A stretch of 64,000 nucleotides of DNA from Parcubacteria group bacterium Gr01-1014_8 (GTDB taxonomy: Bacteria; Patescibacteriota; Minisyncoccia; Phycocordibacterales; UBA2100): positions 1 to 64,000 of the forward strand of contig VMGC01000002.1 of NCBI GenBank assembly GCA_007376385.1. Direction: 5' to 3'. The position numbers and the translations under genes were made by a program. A model generated the notes under the pieces. It was given only the letters and a program-made list of their open reading frames with translations, was not told the origin of the DNA and searched no databases. The stretch's first letter is position 1; every line of letters begins with the position of its first letter. This document shows, in pieces, positions 9,735-61,095 of the stretch.

Positions 9735-10021
9735 TATAACCCCGTGAGATAGTTACGCACTATTTTTAATGCGCGTCTTTATATATCGTTTGCCCCAAGC
9801 AGTTTTAAGATATTTTTCTCGAATGTGCGCGTCCTTAATCGAGGTGGATGCCTCGTAGTAAACAAGTTGCCACGGACCCCTATTTTTTGTTGAGAATACT
9901 TTGTTGCTGTTATGAAGATTGAATCTTCGGCGTAAATTATTCGTAGAGCCCACATAAAACTGCTTGGGGCCACGAATTACATACACATAGTACATGTACC
10001 TAATTATCTCACGGGGTATAA
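9735..10021 (-). mobile_element. TIR-bounded mini-element carrying only a GIY-YIG nuclease gene (TIR CCCCGTGAGATA / TATCTCACGGGG; 5-bp TSD TATAA)
   Basis: The left TIR core is at 9740..9751 and the right TIR core at 10005..10016. TATAA flanks both sides (9735..9739 and 10017..10021). The paralogous empty site at 7181..7210 contains a single TATAA. Confidence 0.6.
9753..9995 (-). CDS. GIY-YIG nuclease family protein (stand-alone URI domain, approx. 80 aa)
   Basis: MYYVYVIRGPKQFYVGSTNNLRRRFNLHN... shows the GIY-YIG signature (YVY..FYVG/YIG, R, H/N). It occupies almost the whole interior of the TIR element. The stop codon abuts the left TIR. Confidence 0.85.
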   Translation of the reverse strand: MYYVYVIRGPKQFYVGSTNNLRRRFNLHNSNKVFSTKNRGPWQLVYYEASTSIKDAHIREKYLKTAWGKRYIKTRIKNSA

Positions 10022-10030
10022 TGATGAGTA

Positions 10031-13000
10031 ATGCGAAACGCGCATGTCGCAGGTGTTTTGTTTGTAATTCTTGCAGCTACTATCTGCAGTGCTGCATTCA
10101 TAGCTCTCGGTTCATCATTTGTGCCTACTGCATCTGCACAAAGTGGACAGGGTAATTGCAAGACGCAATACGATGCGTGTATAAAGGCCGCGAATTCCGC
10201 TGCTGCGAAAGCACAGACCTCTGCGCAAGTACAACAGGCTGCGAAGGATAAAGCATCATGCATGCCGAAGTGGCGCACGTGCATGAACAAATGTAAGCAG
10301 CTTACGAAAGGTGCAGACGGTGCTTCGAGCTGTTCGACGGATAGTGAATGCAAAGGAAAACGCTGCAAGGATACCTATAACGATCTAACGAAAGAGAGAA
10401 AGTGTTGCGTAAATCTTTATGACCTCGGAAAAGAATCGCAAAATTCGTGCCCGAATGAAGTTACCTCTAGTGTAGGGCTGCGATGTTATGAAGATGCTGC
10501 GGCGCCTCATGACCCGACAAAAGGGGGAACGCCTGGGGGCACGCCATCTACGCCAGGCGGACAGCCGGAACAACCTTCGGGAGGAATGCCGCAAATTCCG
10601 CAACCGTCGCCGGGAGAAGGCTCACCGCCGAAAGAGCAACCCAAAGAAGAACCGACGCCAGAGCCGAAAAAGGAACCGACATTGTTTGAGAAATTCGCTC
10701 AGTATCTTGGAGGAGATACACCGAAGACAGATGATGCAAAATCACCGCTCGATTATTTCTTCAAGAAAGATGAGGTTGAGCTTGGTTCAACACCCGCTGA
10801 TACTTTAGGAAAGGATTTCCCCGATGCATCGGACAAATGGTGGAATGATGCTGTTGGGCAAAGCACATTCGGTGCGCCCGAAAATTCAGTAGTAACCACA
10901 GACCAGAGTAATTGGGAGCAATTCAAAGAACATATAGCAAATGGAGATATTGTCGCAGCGGGTGGAGATGTCATTGATGGCGCAAAAAATGTGCTTGGTC
11001 TAGGCGATGAAGTGGCTGCAGAGATTCCAGGCGATACAAAAACACTGACTGATGAAACTCCTGACGTGCCAAAAGAGGGACAACAATATGCTGAAGCAAA
11101 ACCCGGTGCCGCCCCGGAAAAACCGACGTCAGATTTAAGTAAAGAGGAGCAAAAGGCAATCACGGAAAAATCCCTGAAAGATACTGAAGCGAAGATCGCC
11201 GCTACCAACAAGGATCTTCAGAATCCCAATCTTGACGAAGCATCAAAAGAAGCACTTCGGGAAAATCTGAAGGACCTTCAATCGCAGCAAGCGGATCTTA
11301 AAAAGGAAATAAACGATCTCGCTAATCCTCCTGAGGCGATACGGAACAAAGCCATCATGGGTGAAGGTGCGCTAAGTGAACACCAACTGCCGTATGACGC
11401 CGAACCAGGGGGGAGAAAAGTATACGTTGAAACAGATGGACCGAACGGAAAGCATATCGTCGAAGTGGACTCGAAAACGGCGGGGACCGATGCCAATGGG
11501 AAGCCTACGACCCTGGGCGATATCGCCCAAGCAAATGGCGCCGGAAATTCGCCGACAAATCCGCTGCCGATGGATGCAGTGCGGTCAGCGGTGGGTGGAG
11601 ATGAAGGACTGAAGGCAATGACAACTCCTACTATAGAGAAGACAGGCGAGGCTCTTACATACAACCGGCCAGTCGGTCCTAATGATCAGGCAACTCTTGA
11701 TGTTAAAGTCGAAAAAAGTCCGGTCAGCAATTTATATGAAGTCAATCAAGATCCGCTGAAAGTCGCTTCGGAAGGGTATCAAGAGGGAGAGGGCAAAGTG
11801 GTGAACGAGGGCAAATTCCTTTTTGGTGAGGGAGCAAAACCACCACCCGCAGGGGAGCCACCTACAGCGGCGTCTCCGCCACCGCCTGCGGAATCTGAAA
11901 AAAGTGACGCATCAGTCGCACGCTCCCCGAATACGCCCGAAGAATATGCAAAAGCCGCCGAAGAAGCGATCAAGCGATCGATGGTAAATCTGGGGAATGG
12001 TTTTGCAAATGTCGTCGATGCCGCAAGAGAAGGAATTAGTAATGCTGCTGTTGAAGTTCAAAAATGGGCGCACGAGGCGAAACAAGCGGCAGCAGATGCA
12101 TACAATTATGTTGCCGGCACAATAGAAGATATACGTCCCGCAGGAAATCCTACAGACGTACAAGCGCCCTCCCCCGGGCCGGTGGCGCAGCAGCCGAGTC
12201 CATCGCCGGGCGATAATCCAGGCGGAGGCACTGTTGTACCTGATACACAAGGAACCATTCCTATAAAAGCGCCCACTGGTCCCGGAGATCAAAATCCTCC
12301 GGTTAAGTCTGGGGACGGATCGACTGATGGAGGAAAAACGGAACCAACGATTACTCCCACGGATAAACCTGGCAAAGACATAGACGCGCCTGTTCCTGAT
12401 CCGCAAGGGAAAACAAAACAACCGACAACGCCGAGTCCGGAAGGAAAGGAGCAGACGGTACCACAGCCTGCGCCGCCAAGCTCTCCTCCAAATCGGGGTT
12501 GGTTTAAAAGAATCGCCGATGCGCTCCGTGGTTTTCCGATTCCCGGTCCCTCACCTTCGCCGACAAATATCTCACCGTCCGTATTTCAACCGCAGCCACA
12601 AGGTCAAGATCAAAAGCAGGCCCCGCAGCCAACGCCTTCAGAAAAGAAAGGTCAACCGGAACCGGATCCGAAAGGGACCGCAAAAAGTAATTTTGCTCCG
12701 AAAACAAAAAATAACCTCCAGGAGTTTTTGGCAGATGCGCTCAAAAAATTCGCAGATGGAATTGCGAAGCGAACAGGTCAAGATCCTGGAGAAACTCCAG
12801 GAGGACAAGGTCCGAGCAAGACCGCGAAAGATAACGATCCGAATAAACCCCTTGGGAACAGCTTGGAGAATCCGAAGCAAGTGAAAGATGGAATTCCTGC
12901 GAAGAGCAATACCGGCGAAGCTGGAACCGGCAAAGGTCAGGAGGGAAAGCAGCAACAGCAGAAGGGAGCAAAAGACCAGGAAGGGCAGAAAAAAGGAGAC

Positions 13001-16000
13001 GATGGGAAGCAGGGAGTGCCATCTGGCACGCCAAGCAATACACCTGCGCCCCCTGACTTACCGCGACCGAATATGGTCGCGAAATTACAGGTACCGACTC
13101 CTGTAGCTTCGAATGACCCAAAGGGAAAAACCATCGAGGCTCAAAGCAAAGAGAATGTCCAAACACAGCCTGGCGATAGCGGGCAAGGGCAGGGACAGCC
13201 CAAAGGTGGAGGCAAATCTCTGCTTGAGAAACCGAGTTCTGAAAAAGTCGAAAACGCAACGCCGAGCCCGAGTCCTACCAGAGGTTTCCTTGCGAAGCTT
13301 CCAAATCCGCTTGTATCAATTCCAGGAAAAATAGTAGGCGTGAGTGCGCCTGACGGCGATGCAGTGCCAAGTCCGGCAGGCGATGTGATGCGAACGTCGG
13401 ATGGGCGGCTCAAAACACCGAGTATTTCTGGACGTTCATTGGAAGGACAGCCTGTCAAAGCCGTTGGAGATGCGAAGAAACTACTGCCGACTCTCATCTC
13501 GACGAGAGCTGAAGATGTGCGAGATTTTGTGAGAGGAAGCGGGGTCAGAACTCGGTTCGGTATCAAAGATTGTGCGGCAGCCCCTACTGGCTGGGTTTGT
13601 CAGAACTTAGGAGACATAGCGCAAAGGCAAGGATGTTCGCCTGGGGACCATTCGTGTTGGCAATCTGACGTTGCTGATGCGGAGGCATATTGGGCAAAGC
13701 TTCTCATGCAGCCAAATTACACGCGATGTCAGCCACTGACCGTGCAATGCATTATTAGCGGTCCTGATGGGAGAGGCAATTGGGTCGCCGATGATTCTGC
13801 ATGGAGACGTGCGCAAGGATTAGGCGGTACAGGCTCTAACGCTGACCATGTTGGCAGAGTCATCAGATTCATGGCCGAGAAAGGAGTAAATGTCCAGGGG
13901 AACACGCCTCTCGATCTGAATGATGCGAATGTGAGAAGGGCGTTGGCTTACGGTCAATCAAGAGCCGAACTTAGGGCAGGCGAGAGCGCATATGACGATA
14001 GCGTGATTGATACGGGTTATGAACGCGCTGTTGCGCGCGCTGGCGGAGCACCCCCGCCGCCAATTGTGCCGTCCACACCACCTGCGGCGATTCCGGTGCA
14101 ATCAACGCACGCGCAAGCTTTGCAAAAATATCAAGATGCATTGGCCTGCAAGGGCAATGAGTGTAGACAGCAGAAGATAGATGTTCGAAATCCCCAAGGT
14201 GTGTCGCCAGAGCTGGCGGAGCAAATAAAGCAGCGACATAGCACCGCTCCACAAAAACCTGGGTATGGTACGGAAGTGAACAAGGCGACTGTCATAGCCG
14301 ACCTTGCTGCGTGCGAGGCGATGGGGGGCGGCTGTGGCAGATTATCTTCGTCGGCCCGTTCGCCAGGACAGACGAGGCATGGTCCGGGAGATGCGATTGA
14401 CGTCACGTTCACCGACCCACAAACGCAAGGCACATATGCAGCGCTTTTCATGAACGGCGCCCATGCACTCGGGGCAACTCCTGGCATGGGTTTCAATACA
14501 GAATGCAGCACGGGTTGCATCGTACATGCAGACACGGTAGGCGCGAGTGCCGGACCTGGGGCAGCGAACGCGTGGGCCTATGGTCCTAACTGCGGAAGCG
14601 GAAGCAGCGACTGCATAAAAAATATAGTCGACCCACGGGTTCGTTCAATTGCGAATCTCGCGTATGCGGGGCAGCCGGTTCCTAATAACCTTGTTCCAGA
14701 ATCTATTACACCAGGGACTACGGTTCCAGGGGGGACACCCGCGAGTCAGGTTGTCCGTGGCCCACATGTTCCCGGTTCCGAGCCGGGCATTGTTCCGGGA
14801 AAGGAAGAAGCCAGCAGGTCGCCGGAGGAACAAAAGAAATTAGACGACGATGCGGCACGTGAAAAGCCAAGCCCCTCGGCCACAAAGTCTCCGCCTGGTC
14901 TCACTGGTGACGTTGCAAAAGACGCTGTAAATAAATTCTCACACGATCTTGGGCAAAGGGGATTTGTCTTTGGAAAGGACAGTAAGCTCCTCACGCCACA
15001 GGAAGCAGCAGAGCTATTCAAGAAAGGAGAAAAGCCGGATATCTATCTACCTCGCGACAAAGGTCCGAATCCATTTGCGAGCCCGGAGCAAAAAGCACAA
15101 TTTACGAAAGCTCCAAACGGGCAACATTATGAAAAATTCGAAGGGACTTTTGATGAGTATCGTCAGCGTCTGACGCAAGAATTAACAGCAGCCATTGAAA
15201 ATGCGATGCGTGACCAGCAGCTCAATTCGAAACCGGAGACGGAGAAACTTCGGGATGGAGGAAAACTTGTAACGAAGGGTGAGGGCCAGATACGCAATGT
15301 GTTTCGAGAAAAAGACGGAAAACTAAGTGACAAGCCTGTCGGTCAGGTGCGCGAGATAAGCAAAGAATTTGCGCAACTTCGAAAGGCAGTAGAACTGCAA
15401 GGCGACAAAGTGAAAGTGAAAGAAAAAAATGGACAGTTCAAAACAGAAGATGGAAGACGCGTCGAATTGCGTCCTGATACCGGCAAGGATGCGCCGCCGC
15501 CGTGCACTGATTTTACAAAATGTCATACGGGCGGAAAGATAGAGAATGGAAGATTTGTCGGAGCAGATGGTTCTAACATCGTGAATATACCGGGTGTTGG
15601 ACGCGTAAGATTTGAGCACAATCCATTCAGCCCGAATGCAGGAACGCAACGCGGAAATATGAGTGCGCTCGTCATCCATGAATTCAGAAACCCAGGCGGC
15701 GCAAGGAATGTTGATAGTACGGTGAGATGCCATCAGAACGGTTGCCGAGGAGGAGGCGTATATACGCAAGCGTATGTAAGCCAGCCCTATATTGCAGAGG
15801 ATGGAATGAAGGAAATACGCGTAGTTCAGCTCGGTTCGGCGTACGAGCGCAGTGGCCACGCGGGCTCGACACCGCTTGGCAGCCAGCCGGGACCCGGAAT
15901 AGAGAATGCGTGTCACGGAAGAGGAGATTGCAGTGATCCTCTGCAGATTGCGGCGAACGCTATTATGTATGACGCCTATCGTCAGCAATATCCGAATATG

Positions 16001-18738: not shown

Positions 18739-19637
18739 GTCTGTACACCCAAAAAGGAGCGAATATACGGCGGACGTGGCTTCTCATGACCGCGTTCTTT
18801 CTCCTCGTAATCGCGATTGGCTACGTCATGGCGTGGTATCTGGATAATCCAGGCATCCTCTACATCGCCGTCGCATTCAGCATCATGATGAACATCACAG
18901 CATATTGGTTCTCGGATAAGATAGCGTTATCTTCTACGGGCGCGAAAGAAGCAGACCCGACTCAATATCTGGAATTGCATCGTGCTGTCGAGAATCTTGC
19001 TATCACCGCAGGGCTTCCAAAGCCGCGTGTGTACGTCATTGACGACCCTGCGCCAAATGCGTTTGCTGCAGGAAGGAATCCTAAGCATGCGGTTGTTGCG
19101 GTTACTACCGGACTCCTCGCGCGCTTGGAAAAAACAGAATTGGAAGGCGTATTGGCGCACGAACTTTCGCACATTGGGAACAGGGACATTCTCGTAATGA
19201 CAGTAGCCGTCGTCCTCGCGGGATTTGTATCTGTCCTTGCGGATCTCTTCTTGAGATTCAGTTTTTTCAGCGGGGGAAACAGCAACAGTAGAGAGGGGAA
19301 AAATCCCGTGATGCTTATCATGGGTATCGTGGCGATAATTTTGGCACCGATTGCGGCACAATTGATACAGCTTGCGATATCGAGGAAGCGGGAATTTTTG
19401 GCGGACGCCTCCGGCGCGCTCCTCACGCGCTATCCAGACGCGCTAGCCTCAGCACTCAAGAAAATATCTTCGTACCAGGCGCCGATGCGAAGAGCAACAC
19501 ATGCAACTGCGCACCTTTTTATCTCGAATCCATTTGGTGCAGATGGAAGAGGAAAATTCATAGCAAAAATGTTCATGACGCATCCTCCTGTAGAGGAACG
19601 TATTGCCGCACTCGTTGAGATGCGGAATGTGCAATAG
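18732..19637 (+). CDS. htpX: HtpX-like M48 zinc metalloprotease
   Basis: 301-aa ORF with TM segments and an HELSH (HExxH) motif. Confidence 0.9.
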   Translation: MASLYTQKGANIRRTWLLMTAFFLLVIAIGYVMAWYLDNPGILYIAVAFSIMMNITAYWFSDKIALSSTGAKEADPTQYLELHRAVENLAITAGLPKPRVYVIDDPAPNAFAAGRNPKHAVVAVTTGLLARLEKTELEGVLAHELSHIGNRDILVMTVAVVLAGFVSVLADLFLRFSFFSGGNSNSREGKNPVMLIMGIVAIILAPIAAQLIQLAISRKREFLADASGALLTRYPDALASALKKISSYQAPMRRATHATAHLFISNPFGADGRGKFIAKMFMTHPPVEERIAALVEMRNVQ

Positions 19638-26354: not shown

Positions 26355-26383
26355 TCTCTGAATTATTGTGGCATAATGCTGCC

Positions 26384-26838
26384 CTGCGCTGGGTAGTCGC
26401 CCCGTGAGATAATTGCTCAGATATGTACTACGTGTACGTGCTTTGGGGCAAGGGGTATCTGAAGTTGCGTATCAAACATAGGGAGTAACTATCTCACGGG
26501 GAGGAAAGTCCGGGCACAGGCCCTTTTTGGGCAGCAGGGTAGCGGGTAACGCCCGTACGCCGCAAGGCGAGAGGTGCGAACAGAGACGCTTCCGACGAAA
26601 GGTAGGAAGCATCTCCGAAGGTCGAAAGGCTCTTGGAGACGAGCTCTTCAGGCGACTGGAGAGGTGCAACGGCAAAATCCTTACTTCTGTGCAAGACCGT
26701 GTCCAGTTGGGGTTTTATTCAATTGATAAAACTTCATCTGGAAGAGTCGCTAGAGGTGAGCGGTAACGCTCATCCTAAGATAAATGACTGCACATTCCGT
26801 CTTAGACGGAAGGACAGAACCCGGCTTATAGGCGCAGC
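26384..26838 (+). ncRNA. rnpB: RNase P RNA (bacterial type A-like)
   Basis: It contains the conserved CR-I AGGAAAGTCCGGGC (26501-26514) and CR-V ACAGAACCCGGCTTA (26815-26829). The ends are approximate. Candidate P1/P2 pairing is CTGCGC (26384-26389) with GCGCAG (26832-26837). Confidence 0.75.
26400..26501 (+). mobile_element. copy of the CCCCGTGAGATA/TATCTCACGGGG TIR element (102 bp, no ORF, no TSD) at the RNase P RNA P3 position
   Basis: The TIR cores are at 26400..26411 and 26490..26501. The right TIR abuts AGGAAAGTCCGGGC. Confidence 0.55.
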
Positions 26839-27240
26839 GAAATGAGCGAGGCGAAAAAGCCTCGCTTTTTCGTATCCGAATGAGCAAGCCTAGGAGCGTA
26901 GCGATATAGACGCAGACAGACAGGCGAAGCAGAAATGCTTCGCTTTTCTGCTTCGGAGCAAACGTTAGATCCAGCGAAATGAGCGACCAATTTTTGTTGG
27001 CCGCAGACGTTACAAAAATGGGAGTGCCCCTGTGGTGCGAAACGAAAAAGCTTTGCTTTTTCATTTCCGAATGAGCAAGCTTATATGAGCCTTGGCGAAT
27101 TGAGGCGCAGCGCAGCGAGCAACGCAAACGAGTGTTGCTCGTTTGCGTTTGAACCAGCAAGTTTGGGAGCGTAGCGATATAGCACGCAACAAAAAAGTCA
27201 GCTCGGAAGGCCTCACCTCTTCTTTTTTTCGTATGTTAAA
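26836..27240 (+). repeat. hairpin-rich degenerate tandem repeat region
   Basis: These units repeat: GCGAAATGAGCGA (26837, 26953); CGAAAAAGCYTYGCTTTTTC..TCCGAATGAGCAAGC (26852, 27047); GGAGCGTAGCGATATAG (26893, 27164). There are several 9-10 bp stem hairpins. Confidence 0.6.
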
Positions 27241-41983: not shown

Positions 41984-42086
41984 TATACCCCATGAGATAA
42001 ATACATTGAAATTAACCGGGCAACTCGAATATATCTACACAAAAGATAACTGCAAAAAACACCACATGACTATCTCACGGGGTATA
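41984..42086 (+). mobile_element. ORF-less copy of the CCCC(A/G)TGAGATA/TATCTCACGGGG TIR element (95 bp) with 4-bp TSD TATA
   Basis: TIR cores at 41988..41999 and 42071..42082. TATA is at 41984..41987 and 42083..42086. The right end sits 9 bp upstream of the ABC transporter ATG and creates a TATACT -10-like box. Confidence 0.6.
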
Positions 42087-42094
42087 CTTGTCCA

Positions 42095-43876
42095 ATGAGT
42101 TCCTACTGGCGTGAAGACATACCACTCGACACGAATCCATTTCGATTCTTTTTGTTTGTCTCGAGAGCTCACTGGAAGATGGTCTGGTTATCTATTGCTG
42201 CAGTTGTCGCAGCCGGCATATGTTCTGCCTTTACCGCGTATTCCTTCAAGATAATCGCCAACGCTGCAACAATGCTCCCGCAAAGTACTGCCTACGATAA
42301 TCTCGTGTGGGGAAGCGGCATATATCTGCTTTCCCTTCTCGCTGCAAAGGCATTTTGGCGATGGAGCGGCTTCACCGGCGGTAAATGGGCGACAGGCTCA
42401 AGGGCCACCGCTCGTCATGCGCTCACTGCCTATGTAACGCTTCATAGCAGAACCTATTTCTCGAACCGTTTTGCAGGCTCAATTGCAAATAAAATAGGTC
42501 ATGCGGCGAGTGGAATGGTTGATATGGTCGAGTTGCTATTGTGGGAATTTATCGAGCTTTTTGTTGCGGTCATCACGAGTTTCATGATCGCTTTCATTGC
42601 TTCTCCCTCTATCGCGATCGTCTTTTTTGCGTGGGTTGTTGCAGTCGCGGTTCTTAATGTTTTTTTCGCGTATAAGCGAACGCCTCTTTCGGCGCGGGCT
42701 CAACAGCTCGAGACGGGTCTAACTGGTGCGACTGTGGATCTTCTTTCAAACATCACTGCTATGCAGGAGTATGCGAGGCGCCCCTTCGAGATAGGGCGCC
42801 TTAGGGATGCGATAGACGAACGAAGAAAAGCGGGACTTCGCAATTGGTGGTACGGGGAGCGTGTGCTCGTCATCAACAATATTCTCCAGACTTTTTTCGG
42901 GGCTCTCATGCTTTTTACCGCGGTAAAACTGGCGATGTCGGGAACTATCTCGCCCGGCGATGTTGTATTGGTGATAACGGTAATTTTCCGAATAGAAGGT
43001 TTGCTGCAGACGCTCGGCTCCAACCTCAATAAAATATCAAATGTGTGGGGAGAGGTCGAAGAAAGCCTCAATGAAATAGTTGAGCCCCACGAGATCCCCG
43101 ACAGGGAAGATGCGATGATGCTTGAAGTTGGCGAAGGGGCGATAGATGTAAATAATATTTCATTTGCTTATGAGGAGACACAAGTCTTTCAGCACCTTTC
43201 CGTACATGTGAAGGCAGGACAGCGCGTAGGGCTTGTGGGTAAAAGCGGTTCGGGAAAAAGTACGCTCATGCGGCTTCTTTTGCACCATCACGATATTCAA
43301 GCGGGCTCTATCACGATAGACGGTGTTGACATAGCGGACGTGAAGCAAGAGAGTTTGCGGCGAGCCATATCGATCGTCCCGCAGGAGCCGTTGTTATTCC
43401 ACCGGAATATTCTTGAGAATATCGGATACGGCAAGCCGAGCGCGACCGCTAAACAGATAATGGAAGCGGCAAAGCTTGCACAGGCGCATGAGTTCATACA
43501 GCATCTCCCTGGCGGATACGATTCCGTCGTCGGAGAGCGCGGAATCAAGCTCTCCGGAGGTGAACGCCAACGTGTTGTTATTGCAAGAGCCATATTGAAG
43601 AACGCCCCTATTCTTCTGTTGGATGAAGCAACATCGGCGCTTGATAGCGAAAGCGAAGTTGCTATTCAGGAGGCGCTTCGAAAATTGATGCAAGGAAAGA
43701 CAGTTATCGCAATAGCGCACCGCCTCTCAACCTTGCGCGAAATGGATCGCATCCTTGTCATGGATGCAGGTAAAATAGTCGAGGATGGCACGCACGATGA
43801 ATTATTGCGCCGCGGAGGTAAGTATTCAGAGTTGTGGGCGCATCAGGCTGGCGGATTCTTGCAGGAAGAGGAGTAG
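42095..43876 (+). CDS. ABC transporter, fused permease/ATP-binding exporter (MsbA-like)
   Basis: Six TM helices, Walker A GKSGSGKST, ABC signature LSGGERQRV and Walker B LLLDEATSALD. Confidence 0.9.
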   Translation: MSSYWREDIPLDTNPFRFFLFVSRAHWKMVWLSIAAVVAAGICSAFTAYSFKIIANAATMLPQSTAYDNLVWGSGIYLLSLLAAKAFWRWSGFTGGKWATGSRATARHALTAYVTLHSRTYFSNRFAGSIANKIGHAASGMVDMVELLLWEFIELFVAVITSFMIAFIASPSIAIVFFAWVVAVAVLNVFFAYKRTPLSARAQQLETGLTGATVDLLSNITAMQEYARRPFEIGRLRDAIDERRKAGLRNWWYGERVLVINNILQTFFGALMLFTAVKLAMSGTISPGDVVLVITVIFRIEGLLQTLGSNLNKISNVWGEVEESLNEIVEPHEIPDREDAMMLEVGEGAIDVNNISFAYEETQVFQHLSVHVKAGQRVGLVGKSGSGKSTLMRLLLHHHDIQAGSITIDGVDIADVKQESLRRAISIVPQEPLLFHRNILENIGYGKPSATAKQIMEAAKLAQAHEFIQHLPGGYDSVVGERGIKLSGGERQRVVIARAILKNAPILLLDEATSALDSESEVAIQEALRKLMQGKTVIAIAHRLSTLREMDRILVMDAGKIVEDGTHDELLRRGGKYSELWAHQAGGFLQEEE

Positions 43877-57911: not shown

Positions 57912-58019
57912 TATACCCCGTGAGATATGTATAAAAAAGGCATCTTAACTAGCTGATTATTCATTTGAATTTATAGATTGTGATGAGAAATTTGGAGTGT
58001 ACCTATCTCATGGGGTATA
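57912..58019 (+). mobile_element. ORF-less copy of the TIR element (100 bp) with 4-bp TSD TATA
   Basis: TIR cores at 57916..57927 (CCCCGTGAGATA) and 58004..58015 (TATCTCATGGGG). TATA is at 57912..57915 and 58016..58019. Confidence 0.6.
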
Positions 58020-60989: not shown

Positions 60990-61095
60990 TTGACCCCGTG
61001 AGATAAACATGGTGACGTTCGAGTCGAACATGTGGTTTTGTTGTGGCTCTCAAGCACCGCCTAACAATAAGGAATGGGTTATCTCACGGGGTTGA
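60990..61095 (+). mobile_element. ORF-less copy of the TIR element (98 bp) with 4-bp TSD TTGA, in the ftsA-ftsZ intergenic region
   Basis: TIR cores at 60994..61005 and 61080..61091. TTGA is at 60990..60993 and 61092..61095. Confidence 0.6.

Follow-up and report, generated by a model that had tools for sequence, protein, structure and literature searches.

In a 64,000-nucleotide stretch of DNA from Parcubacteria group bacterium Gr01-1014_8 (contig VMGC01000002.1, positions 1 to 64,000; hereafter the window), we found that the ribonuclease P (RNase P) RNA gene, rnpB, has a helix P3 made from a pair of 12-nt inverted repeats that also occur elsewhere in the window. Very probably, these repeats are the ends of a small selfish element, homing-endonuclease-like or intervening-sequence-like, that sits exactly at P3 and whose resident GIY-YIG nuclease gene has been mostly deleted. 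The parts of the gene that bear on this reading are listed here (CR-I and CR-V, conserved regions I and V).

26384-26838, plus strand: rnpB, class A RNase P RNA, bounded by the two strands of P1 (RF00010, orthology, fold).
26384-26389, plus strand: P1 5' strand CUGCGC, pairing with 26832-26837 (6/6 pairs, covariation).
26393-26398, plus strand: P2 5' strand GUAGUC, pairing with 26786-26791 (6/6 pairs).
26400-26411, plus strand: left inverted repeat CCCCGUGAGAUA, the P3 5' strand (repeat search; Rfam alignment of the identical sequence in the related locus L061).
26412-26489, plus strand: insert interior, remnant of a GIY-YIG nuclease gene (alignment to 9740-10016 and to the related loci L103 and L151).
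26490-26501, plus strand: right inverted repeat UAUCUCACGGGG, the P3 3' strand, with CR-I directly after it (Rfam puts the P3 3' strand at 26493-26501).
26502-26515, plus strand: CR-I, the P4 5' strand, AGGAAAGUCCGGGC (RF00010 alignment, maximal posterior probability).
26786-26791, plus strand: P2 3' strand GACUGC (pairing with 26393-26398).
26814-26828, plus strand: CR-V, the P4 3' strand, ACAGAACCCGGCUUA (RF00010 alignment, maximal posterior probability).
26832-26837, plus strand: P1 3' strand GCGCAG (pairing with 26384-26389).

When searched with permissive filters, RF00010 matched the gene with 97.9 bits (E = 1.8e-30) over a model span of 26464-26842. CR-I and CR-V are able to form P4, the ends of the gene form P1 and P2, and P3 stands directly before CR-I, all of which are features of class A. 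For comparison, we collected relatives through the gene for the class II ribonucleotide reductase (RNR), which is a neighbor of rnpB in the window together with the genes for a TPR protein and MurJ. This gave 80 loci, all from Patescibacteria and labeled mostly Candidatus Kaiserbacteria, with protein identities of at most 85%; they yielded, with the window, 66 rnpB genes (65 in related loci), the majority of which adjoin the RNR gene, and P1/P2 covariation and P3 length were measured in 48 of these. The host of the window is a Kaiserbacteria-like, ultra-small member of the Parcubacteria, and the region had no match in a phage collection. At position 5 of P1, 26 of the 48 genes have G-C, 14 have A-U, and 7 have G-U; at position 6, 23 have U-A and 15 have C-G; all six pairs of P2 are present in 43/48, with compensatory changes at 4 positions. 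The 5' layout in the relatives, a -10 box, ~8 nt, CUGCG(U/C), UAG, GCAGUC, G, a short hairpin, A, and GGAAAGUCC, is matched in the window by CATAAT, CUGCGC (26384-89), GUAGUC (26393-98), G, and the left repeat. Further, P1, P2, and the repeat stem all form in an unconstrained fold of 26384-26838 (-191 kcal/mol, z = -6.4). We conclude that the gene at 26384-26838 encodes a class A RNase P RNA, which is predicted to act catalytically on pre-tRNA.

An earlier sequence-only reading of this DNA had proposed that the repeat CCCCGTGAGATA at 26400-26411 and its inverted partner TATCTCACGGGG at 26490-26501 form P3, and that CTGCGC (26384-26389) pairs with GCGCAG (26832-26837) after the CR-V sequence ACAGAACCCGGCTTA (26814-26828). 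All of these positions are correct. The proposed CTGCGC/GCGCAG helix is P1, with 6/6 pairs and covariation, and P2 was found between it and the left repeat. The CR-I sequence AGGAAAGTCCGGGC does follow the repeat directly, but it begins at 26502 and not, as had been read, at 26501, since the repeat ends with G26501. The same reading had named a covariance model as the arbiter for P3, and in part the model disagrees: in the window, the Rfam alignment begins at 26464, within the insert, sets the P3 5' strand at 26476-84, leaves 3 mispairs in the 9 positions of P3, and drops the P2 5' strand. Taken literally, this describes an RNA that starts inside the insert, with its 5' end at 26464, GUUGCG/CGCAGC as P1, 26476-84 paired with 26493-501 as P3, and the left repeat outside the RNA. 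The best RF00010 alignment does cover 26464-26842, and GUUGCG can pair with CGCAGC. However, such an RNA needs the P2 5' strand to be deleted and accepts 3/9 mispairs in P3, its GUUGCG P1 is impossible in relatives with other interiors, and it disregards an upstream P1 and P2 that are orthologous and covary, as well as a -10-like box 6 nt upstream of 26384, of which no counterpart was noted, or sought, within the insert. Moreover, with a short loop, the same model takes both repeats as P3: in L061, where the same repeats surround 12 nt, RF00010 aligns CCCCGUGAG...CUCACGGGG as P3 with 0 mispairs and places P1 and P2 upstream. Because of the L061 alignment, the P1/P2 covariation, and the unconstrained fold, we attribute the start at 26464 to the 78-nt loop, as an artefact, and a start inside the insert can hardly be right. 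We conclude that the repeats at 26400-26411 and 26490-26501 are helix P3. The junction is the same in each of 13 distinct host contexts, G/CCCC...GGGG/AGGAAAG (slashes mark the borders of the insert), and the repeat stem is invariant save for G-C or G-U at position 5 and one compensatory CCAC/GTGG change (C-G to A-U), whereas the host P2 beside it varies.

What lies between the repeats can be read by comparison with another copy in the window.

9740-10016, minus strand: full-length 277-bp element with the same repeats; its 80-aa GIY-YIG gene, which runs from 9995 to 9753, appears intact (PF01541).

The open reading frame (ORF) of this copy nearly fills the element and encodes a GIY-YIG catalytic domain (PF01541, E = 1.4e-14); its product has 628 homologues, mostly of 80 aa, and its nearest solved structure is the UPF0213 protein BH0048 (1ZG2, E = 0.005). 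Save for a 175-nt internal block, the P3 insert can be aligned from one end to the other with 9740-10016 in reverse complement. The interior alignment scores 60.4 compared with 27.6 +/- 4.5 for 1000 dinucleotide shuffles, none of which was as good (z = 7.3), and 21 in the opposite orientation, so that the match exists only when the sense of the gene is the sense of rnpB. A remnant frame at 26423-26488, in the rnpB sense, reads MYYVYVLWGKGYLKLRIKHRE and ends in a stop codon. In its peptide, MYYVYV...WGKGYLKLRIKHRE, we recognize the N-terminal MYYVYV(L) of the nuclease and its C-terminal WGK-Y-K-RIK...; the gene still has its start and stop codons, with 6-7 codons left at the N-terminal end and ~15 at the C-terminal end. 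The P3 copy, which thus keeps the two ends of a gene of the nuclease family encoded by 9753-9995 and by the intact relatives, is 86% identical (66/77) to the element in L103 and 85% identical (64/75) to that in L151, both intact elements in P3, and matches the 9740-10016 copy of its own genome at 59/74 positions. The deletion junction lies within TGCTTTGGGGC (26439-26449), and in the L103 and L151 elements, the direct repeats TGCTTCGGGGC and TGCTTGGGGC stand at the two ends of the missing block, as would be expected of a microhomology-mediated deletion. The end-to-end alignment, the remnant frame, and the closeness to P3-resident elements therefore indicate that a nuclease gene decayed in place, with no jump of a short element. 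In the related rnpB genes, intact copies (L103, L150, L151, L156, L205, L209, L211, L213, L216, and L217) form a decay series with the deleted copy of the window and the minimal copy of L061.

Half-sites of the repeat with no more than one mismatch occur 10 times in the window, as five inverted pairs (0.21 expected; 0/100 shuffles reach 10). Besides the P3 copy and the full-length element, these are the following.

41988-42082, no strand assigned: 95-nt hairpin with the same repeats, intergenic, TATA on both sides (repeat search; interior without detectable nuclease-gene similarity).
57916-58015, no strand assigned: 100-nt hairpin with the same repeats, intergenic, TATA on both sides (repeat search; interior without detectable nuclease-gene similarity).
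60994-61091, no strand assigned: 98-nt hairpin with the same repeats, intergenic, TTGA on both sides (repeat search; interior without detectable nuclease-gene similarity).

Such a family recalls MITEs (miniature inverted-repeat transposable elements), and the sequence-only reading had offered a MITE in P3 as one of its two explanations. In its classical form, a ~100-bp non-autonomous transposon, moved by a transposase acting in trans, would have jumped into P3. This accounts for a dispersed family with five copies in 64 kb, for the frequency of short copies of 93-102 nt, for the hairpin fold of all five window copies, and for the direct repeats beside intergenic copies, which resemble target-site duplications (4 bp, TATA, TTGA, TATG, or TGAA; the 9740-10016 element is flanked by TATAA at 9735-39 and 10017-21); further, the P3 copy, at 102 nt with perfect 12-bp repeats, is as short and non-coding as a MITE. 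However, the P3 copy has replaced a helix exactly and, as the earlier reading had noted, has no target-site duplication (flanks GTCG and AGGA), and none was seen at any rnpB copy compared. It is an internal-deletion derivative whose nearest relatives are P3 elements in other genomes and not copies in its own, the interiors of the short window copies cannot be aligned with each other, as those of an amplified, near-identical MITE family could be, and the repeats accompany a GIY-YIG nuclease gene and not a known transposase (the genome was not checked for one). Evidence for transposition of a short element into P3 is absent, and we consider a classical MITE unlikely. Of the earlier claim, a derived insert in P3 is upheld; its identity as a MITE gives way to that of a GIY-YIG nuclease gene cassette reduced to a remnant by deletion in place.

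With regard to the short copies, we note that those in the window and in related loci cluster at 93-102 nt despite their unalignable interiors. Two window copies end directly before -10-like boxes that are followed 6-8 nt on by a start codon, reading TATAAT-GATGAGTA-ATG (10016-10033) and TATACT-TGTCCA-ATG (42082-42097); the TATA duplications at these places therefore lie within the apparent promoters of seemingly leaderless genes. Processing stems, introns of the bulge-helix-bulge (BHB) type, REPIN-like doublets, promoter cassettes, and protein-binding modules were considered as roles for the copies and dropped once the 80-aa ORF was recognized.

That the repeats and the nuclease gene belong together was seen in two samples. 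First, a metagenome scan for two exact repeats 235-265 nt apart returned at least 120 loci; among the matches listed, six-frame comparison found the nuclease encoded in 118/120 units of ~278 bp, apparently intact in 95. At least 4 of the metagenome units are in P3 of complete rnpB genes, co-oriented with them. Second, we picked 10 nuclease homologues by protein similarity alone and then inspected their contigs: the left repeat was present in 10/10 and both repeats in 9/10. Six of these ten lie exactly in the P3 of a complete rnpB gene, with the ORF in the rnpB sense; the other four are intergenic, and 3 of them have both repeats and TATA-type flanks. The P3-resident copy of L213 stands, like that of the window, directly after an RNR gene. 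In a tree of the nuclease, P3 copies and TATA-flanked copies form one clade. We conclude that repeats and gene are one unit of ~278 bp, consisting of CCCCGTGAGATA, ~10 nt, an 80-codon GIY-YIG gene, ~10 nt, and TATCTCACGGGG, and that rnpB P3 is a preferred site of this nuclease element. An earlier view of the ~278-bp metagenome units as non-coding structured RNAs, which came from a longest-ATG-ORF rule, was refuted by the six-frame comparison; an Rfam scan of these units found nothing.

The same units, co-oriented, were also found in integron-integrase-like tyrosine recombinase genes, at the catalytic motif LLGHS/DVSTTMIYTHV (slash, insertion point) in at least 21 loci (among them L081, L088, L090, L113, L115, L120, L123, L144, L147, L159, L178, L180, and L196) and at two other conserved motifs. 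The flanks of the recombinase copies are TTCA on the left and TAAA(N) on the right; among the host ORFs, some run intact over 340-350 codons and others have decayed. Nothing pointed to splicing or bypass of these copies, as the junction offsets vary (4, 5, or 6 nt), several host ORFs are decayed, and no consistent frame rule holds. A G-U versus an A-C at stem position 5 was discarded as an indicator of the transcribed strand, as rnpB-resident copies show both.

Comparison with the relatives shows which state of P3 came first. Most of the 48 genes have a plain P3, with 16-31 nt between the end of P2 and CR-I, and the short P3 without the repeat that the sequence-only reading had asked for in relatives is thus the common form. 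Repeat-type P3s measure 93-102 nt in the window, L003, L028, L050, and L077, and 36 nt in L061, and on the RNR tree they occupy 5 separate places, beside relatives with plain hairpins. The swap is clearest in L050, in which, compared with its close relatives L004 and L001, the native CUGGUGGC-GCAA-GCUACUAG has been exchanged exactly for the repeat hairpin, with no remainder of the old helix and no duplication, the rnpB cores being otherwise nearly identical. With plain P3 in the majority on the host tree, we conclude that the repeat-type insert is the derived state.

The other explanation offered earlier, that the dispersed family arose from the native P3 hairpin of rnpB, runs against this polarity. 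It draws on the fact that several plain P3s begin with CCCC and end with GGGG (for example, CCCCGU-CGCAAGA-CAUGGGG in L023 and CCCCUGAGAAAUCACGGG in L059) and that the closest nuclease homologues are found most often in rnpB P3. However, the likeness to plain P3s extends over only 4-7 terminal nucleotides and could equally be the scar of a lost element, repeat-type P3s are a scattered minority on the host tree, and, in many metagenomes, the same repeats enclose nuclease genes that lie at intergenic sites or within tyrosine-recombinase genes. We regard an origin of the family in rnpB as highly improbable.

Domestication, which the earlier reading had also raised, would make the insert an extension with an RNase P function of its own, for example as a platform for a lineage-specific protein. 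The invariance of the repeat in the 13 host contexts, while the adjoining P2 varies, could be taken in this sense, as could rnpB genes with up to three hairpins of the same stem. Nevertheless, the interiors of the P3 copies show no conservation across genes, most relatives lack the insert, and the stem is equally conserved at sites outside rnpB, which suggests that the element, and not RNase P, imposes the constraint. We found no sign of domestication and consider it very unlikely.

We therefore return to a decayed selfish element, for which we propose the following course. One lineage of the element lives in rnpB, exactly at the native P3 hairpin and with its nuclease gene in the rnpB sense. 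Its paired ends would rebuild a P3-like helix between P2 and CR-I, with the cargo looping out at the distal end; P3 being a peripheral helix whose distal end tolerates extensions, the ribozyme core would stay undisturbed. The essential ribozyme would thus tolerate the element because its ends pair and stand in for P3. In the window, the resident copy has lost 175-176 nt between short direct repeats, and the 102-nt hairpin that is left would be a passive P3 extension. Across hosts, this would amount to a cycle of invasion, decay, and loss, as in homing-endonuclease genes, in which the element would pass between genomes when the conserved rnpB flanks recombine; such a cycle fits because the junctions are identical in diverged hosts, the distribution on the tree is patchy, the orientation is constant, and the copies range from intact to minimal. 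In the RNA, the insert may be kept, or RNase III may cut it out, as it does with the intervening sequences of rRNA.

Several points weigh against this reading. First, the RF00010 match lies ~2 bits below the gathering score of 100 bits, and a default Rfam scan of the window at this threshold returned tRNAs only and missed rnpB. The gathering score is an operational threshold and no structural feature, and we attribute the shortfall to the P3 insert because the model gives 107-118 bits to orthologues whose P3 is plain; to a copy with the full insert it gives 51.6, over a model span that leaves the insert out. Second, the 93-95-nt P3 hairpins of L003, L028, L050, and L077 have no nuclease-gene similarity, and therefore not every repeat-type P3 is demonstrably a decayed gene. 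Third, the 4-bp direct repeats at intergenic copies suggest transposition rather than homing, and the 80-aa nuclease consists of the catalytic domain only, with no obvious DNA-binding module for sequence-specific homing. Fourth, neither homing nor transposition in its simplest form gives an exact replacement of P3 without a trace of the old helix, which only a single origin with later recombination explains. Finally, our view of the source genome is the 64-kb window.

Among known systems, homing-endonuclease genes of group I introns such as I-TevI, itself of the GIY-YIG family, share with the present element a precise site in a conserved gene, a patchy distribution, co-orientation with the host gene, and a course from intact to degenerate to lost; here, the same precise site recurs across the 13 diverged host contexts, scattered on the RNR tree. 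Embedding in an intron or intein is typical of homing-endonuclease genes but not universal. Unlike the I-TevI type, the element has no match to a ribozyme or intron family in Rfam, is too small a unit for a ribozyme, and disrupts its recombinase hosts; its 80-aa catalytic domain lacks the DNA-binding domain of I-TevI, and it has inverted repeats and, at other sites, apparent target-site duplications, in which it differs from homing introns. Hairpin repeats that are tolerated in transcripts or structured RNA genes are also known from the Correia elements of Neisseria, the Rickettsia palindromic elements, and the STRR repeats, and the last provide a precedent for repeats in a peripheral rnpB helix, namely P12 of cyanobacteria. 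None of these three is known to have an origin in a resident nuclease gene or to replace a whole helix, and the P3 copy differs from them further in having no target-site duplication.

In the rRNA genes of the Candidate Phyla Radiation (CPR), Brown et al. in 2015 reportedly found non-intron insertions encoding GIY-YIG proteins in 16S and 23S genes. A later study, in its relevant passages, places such insertions at the top or the base of stem-loops, and its authors regard them as outside homing (Tsurumaki et al. 2024, PMC11270868). They share with the present element the bacterial radiation, the nuclease family, the absence of group I or II intron structure, and the stem-loop sites, and by analogy are probably elements of the same kind; a term search of that article gave no mention of RNase P or of inverted repeats, and its relevant passages hold no decay series. 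The intervening sequences (IVSs) in helices 25 and 45 of 23S rRNA, which occur in Salmonella, Leptospira, Coxiella, and others, are covered there as well (PMC11270868, relevant passages). As in the present rnpB, a terminal hairpin of an essential structured RNA has been swapped for a longer stem-loop with complementary ends; the IVSs, too, are sporadic among relatives, some with a small ORF, and leave the host RNA functional. The differences are that here the host is an RNase P RNA, the cargo is a GIY-YIG gene and not one for the 23S_rRNA_IVP protein, and the closing stem is a fixed 12-bp sequence common to dispersed copies. With respect to rnpB itself, CPR RNase P RNAs were said to need lowered thresholds and manual refolding on account of large helix extensions (Lui et al. 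2021, PMC8172020), which agrees with a window gene that falls below the Rfam threshold and carries such an extension; in the passages of that article returned by a term search, the extensions are not identified as mobile-element sequence or as a protein-coding gene.

New in the present case are the RNase P RNA as host, the defined unit, the replacement of a whole helix, and the decay into MITE-like hairpins. To our knowledge, neither a protein-coding gene nor the remnant of one has been reported before within a helix of a bacterial RNase P RNA. Our literature searches, in which most subscription journals were outside coverage, found nothing on a nuclease gene or mobile element in rnpB and no prior description of an element class with 12-bp inverted ends and a minimal GIY-YIG gene. 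The presence of such a gene or remnant in an rnpB helix recurs across Parcubacteria and gives a concrete cause for large helix extensions that drop CPR rnpB genes below detection, which bears on annotation and on completeness checks; it also offers a defined architecture for the unclassified non-intron insertions of CPR structured RNA genes and suggests a testable candidate substrate for the poorly understood minimal GIY-YIG proteins of the UPF0213/YhbQ-like type. In the essential ribozyme, selfish DNA would persist without splicing, through ends that pair and replace a helix. More tentatively, and as a bolder proposal that we think has a lesser chance of being right, the ~278-bp unit may be an autonomous, undescribed element among the smallest mobile elements, whose nuclease might act on its own ends or on hairpin DNA, whose ends might serve as a "helix prosthesis" in essential RNAs, and through which RNase P RNA might double as the nuclease mRNA in many Parcubacteria.

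Three further features of the window gene and its surroundings complete the list.

26369-26377, plus strand: -10-like box CATAAT (26372-77) with TGG before it, putative promoter with a start near 26384 (by eye).
26795-26811, plus strand: short hairpin UUCCGUC-UUA-GACGGAA between the P2 3' strand and CR-V, in a P19-like position (sequence).
26844-26872, plus strand: terminator-like hairpin (26844-26867) followed by a T run (computed).

The relatives have TATAAT- or TATACT-like boxes at an equal distance from P1; a two-hexamer sigma-70 promoter scan upstream of the window rnpB found no full promoter, and the start near 26384 is putative, judged from the sequence and the boxes of the relatives. 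The P19-like hairpin site (26795-26811) holds insertions in some relatives, as seen in an insert map. Between the 5' strands of P4/P5 and P7, at 26516-26533, we note an extra small hairpin, GGCCCUUUUUGGGC, which is also present in relatives; it counts as an insertion relative to the class A model, and its site is another insertion hot spot among the relatives.

The related rnpB genes carry other hairpins of interest. Hairpins of ~94 nt with the same stem as the repeat-type P3, several of them with three UCGGAG-like motifs, occur in P3, in the hairpin after P5, or in the P15-17 arm: L003 2451-2544 and 2660-2755, L014 3760-3855, L028 12901-12995, L050 12848-12940, L077 12904-12997 and 13178-13273, and the rnpB cores of L103, L151, and L156. 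They have no nuclease-gene similarity, and up to three hairpins of the family are found in one rnpB. A second recurrent module of ~100-125 nt, GCCUGCCGCAGGCAG-UUGCAAAAUCGAG...CUCGAUUUUGUAGCC-ACCUGCGGUGG, is present in the rnpB genes of L003, L010, L014, L015, L029, L061, L064, L073, and L077. It resembles a four-way junction, with complementary loops, GCA and UGC, on its two small hairpins. Within 1.36 Mb of related DNA, it occurs in rnpB only, at three sites (in P3, in the hairpin that follows P5, and just before CR-V); an Rfam scan covering the L061 copy, which was not a dedicated comparison of the module, reported RNase P RNA only. In L040, rnpB (~13060-13490) has three or four hairpins with one shared stem, CCAGCUCUAAUUUU / AAAAUUAGGGCUGG, including P3 and the site before CR-V, and this stem was not seen elsewhere in that locus. 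In L065 (6573-6877), the P15-17 arm of rnpB contains a GIY-YIG pseudogene that has an in-frame stop, is co-oriented with rnpB, and lies in the loop of a perfect 19-bp stem of different sequence, TCCAGCCCCAGTTCTAGGT. Outside rnpB, L061 (19461-19574) contains a repeat variant changed on both arms (CCCCGTTAGATA / TATCTAACGGGG) that surrounds a complete tRNA-Gly(CCC) gene at 19476-19547.

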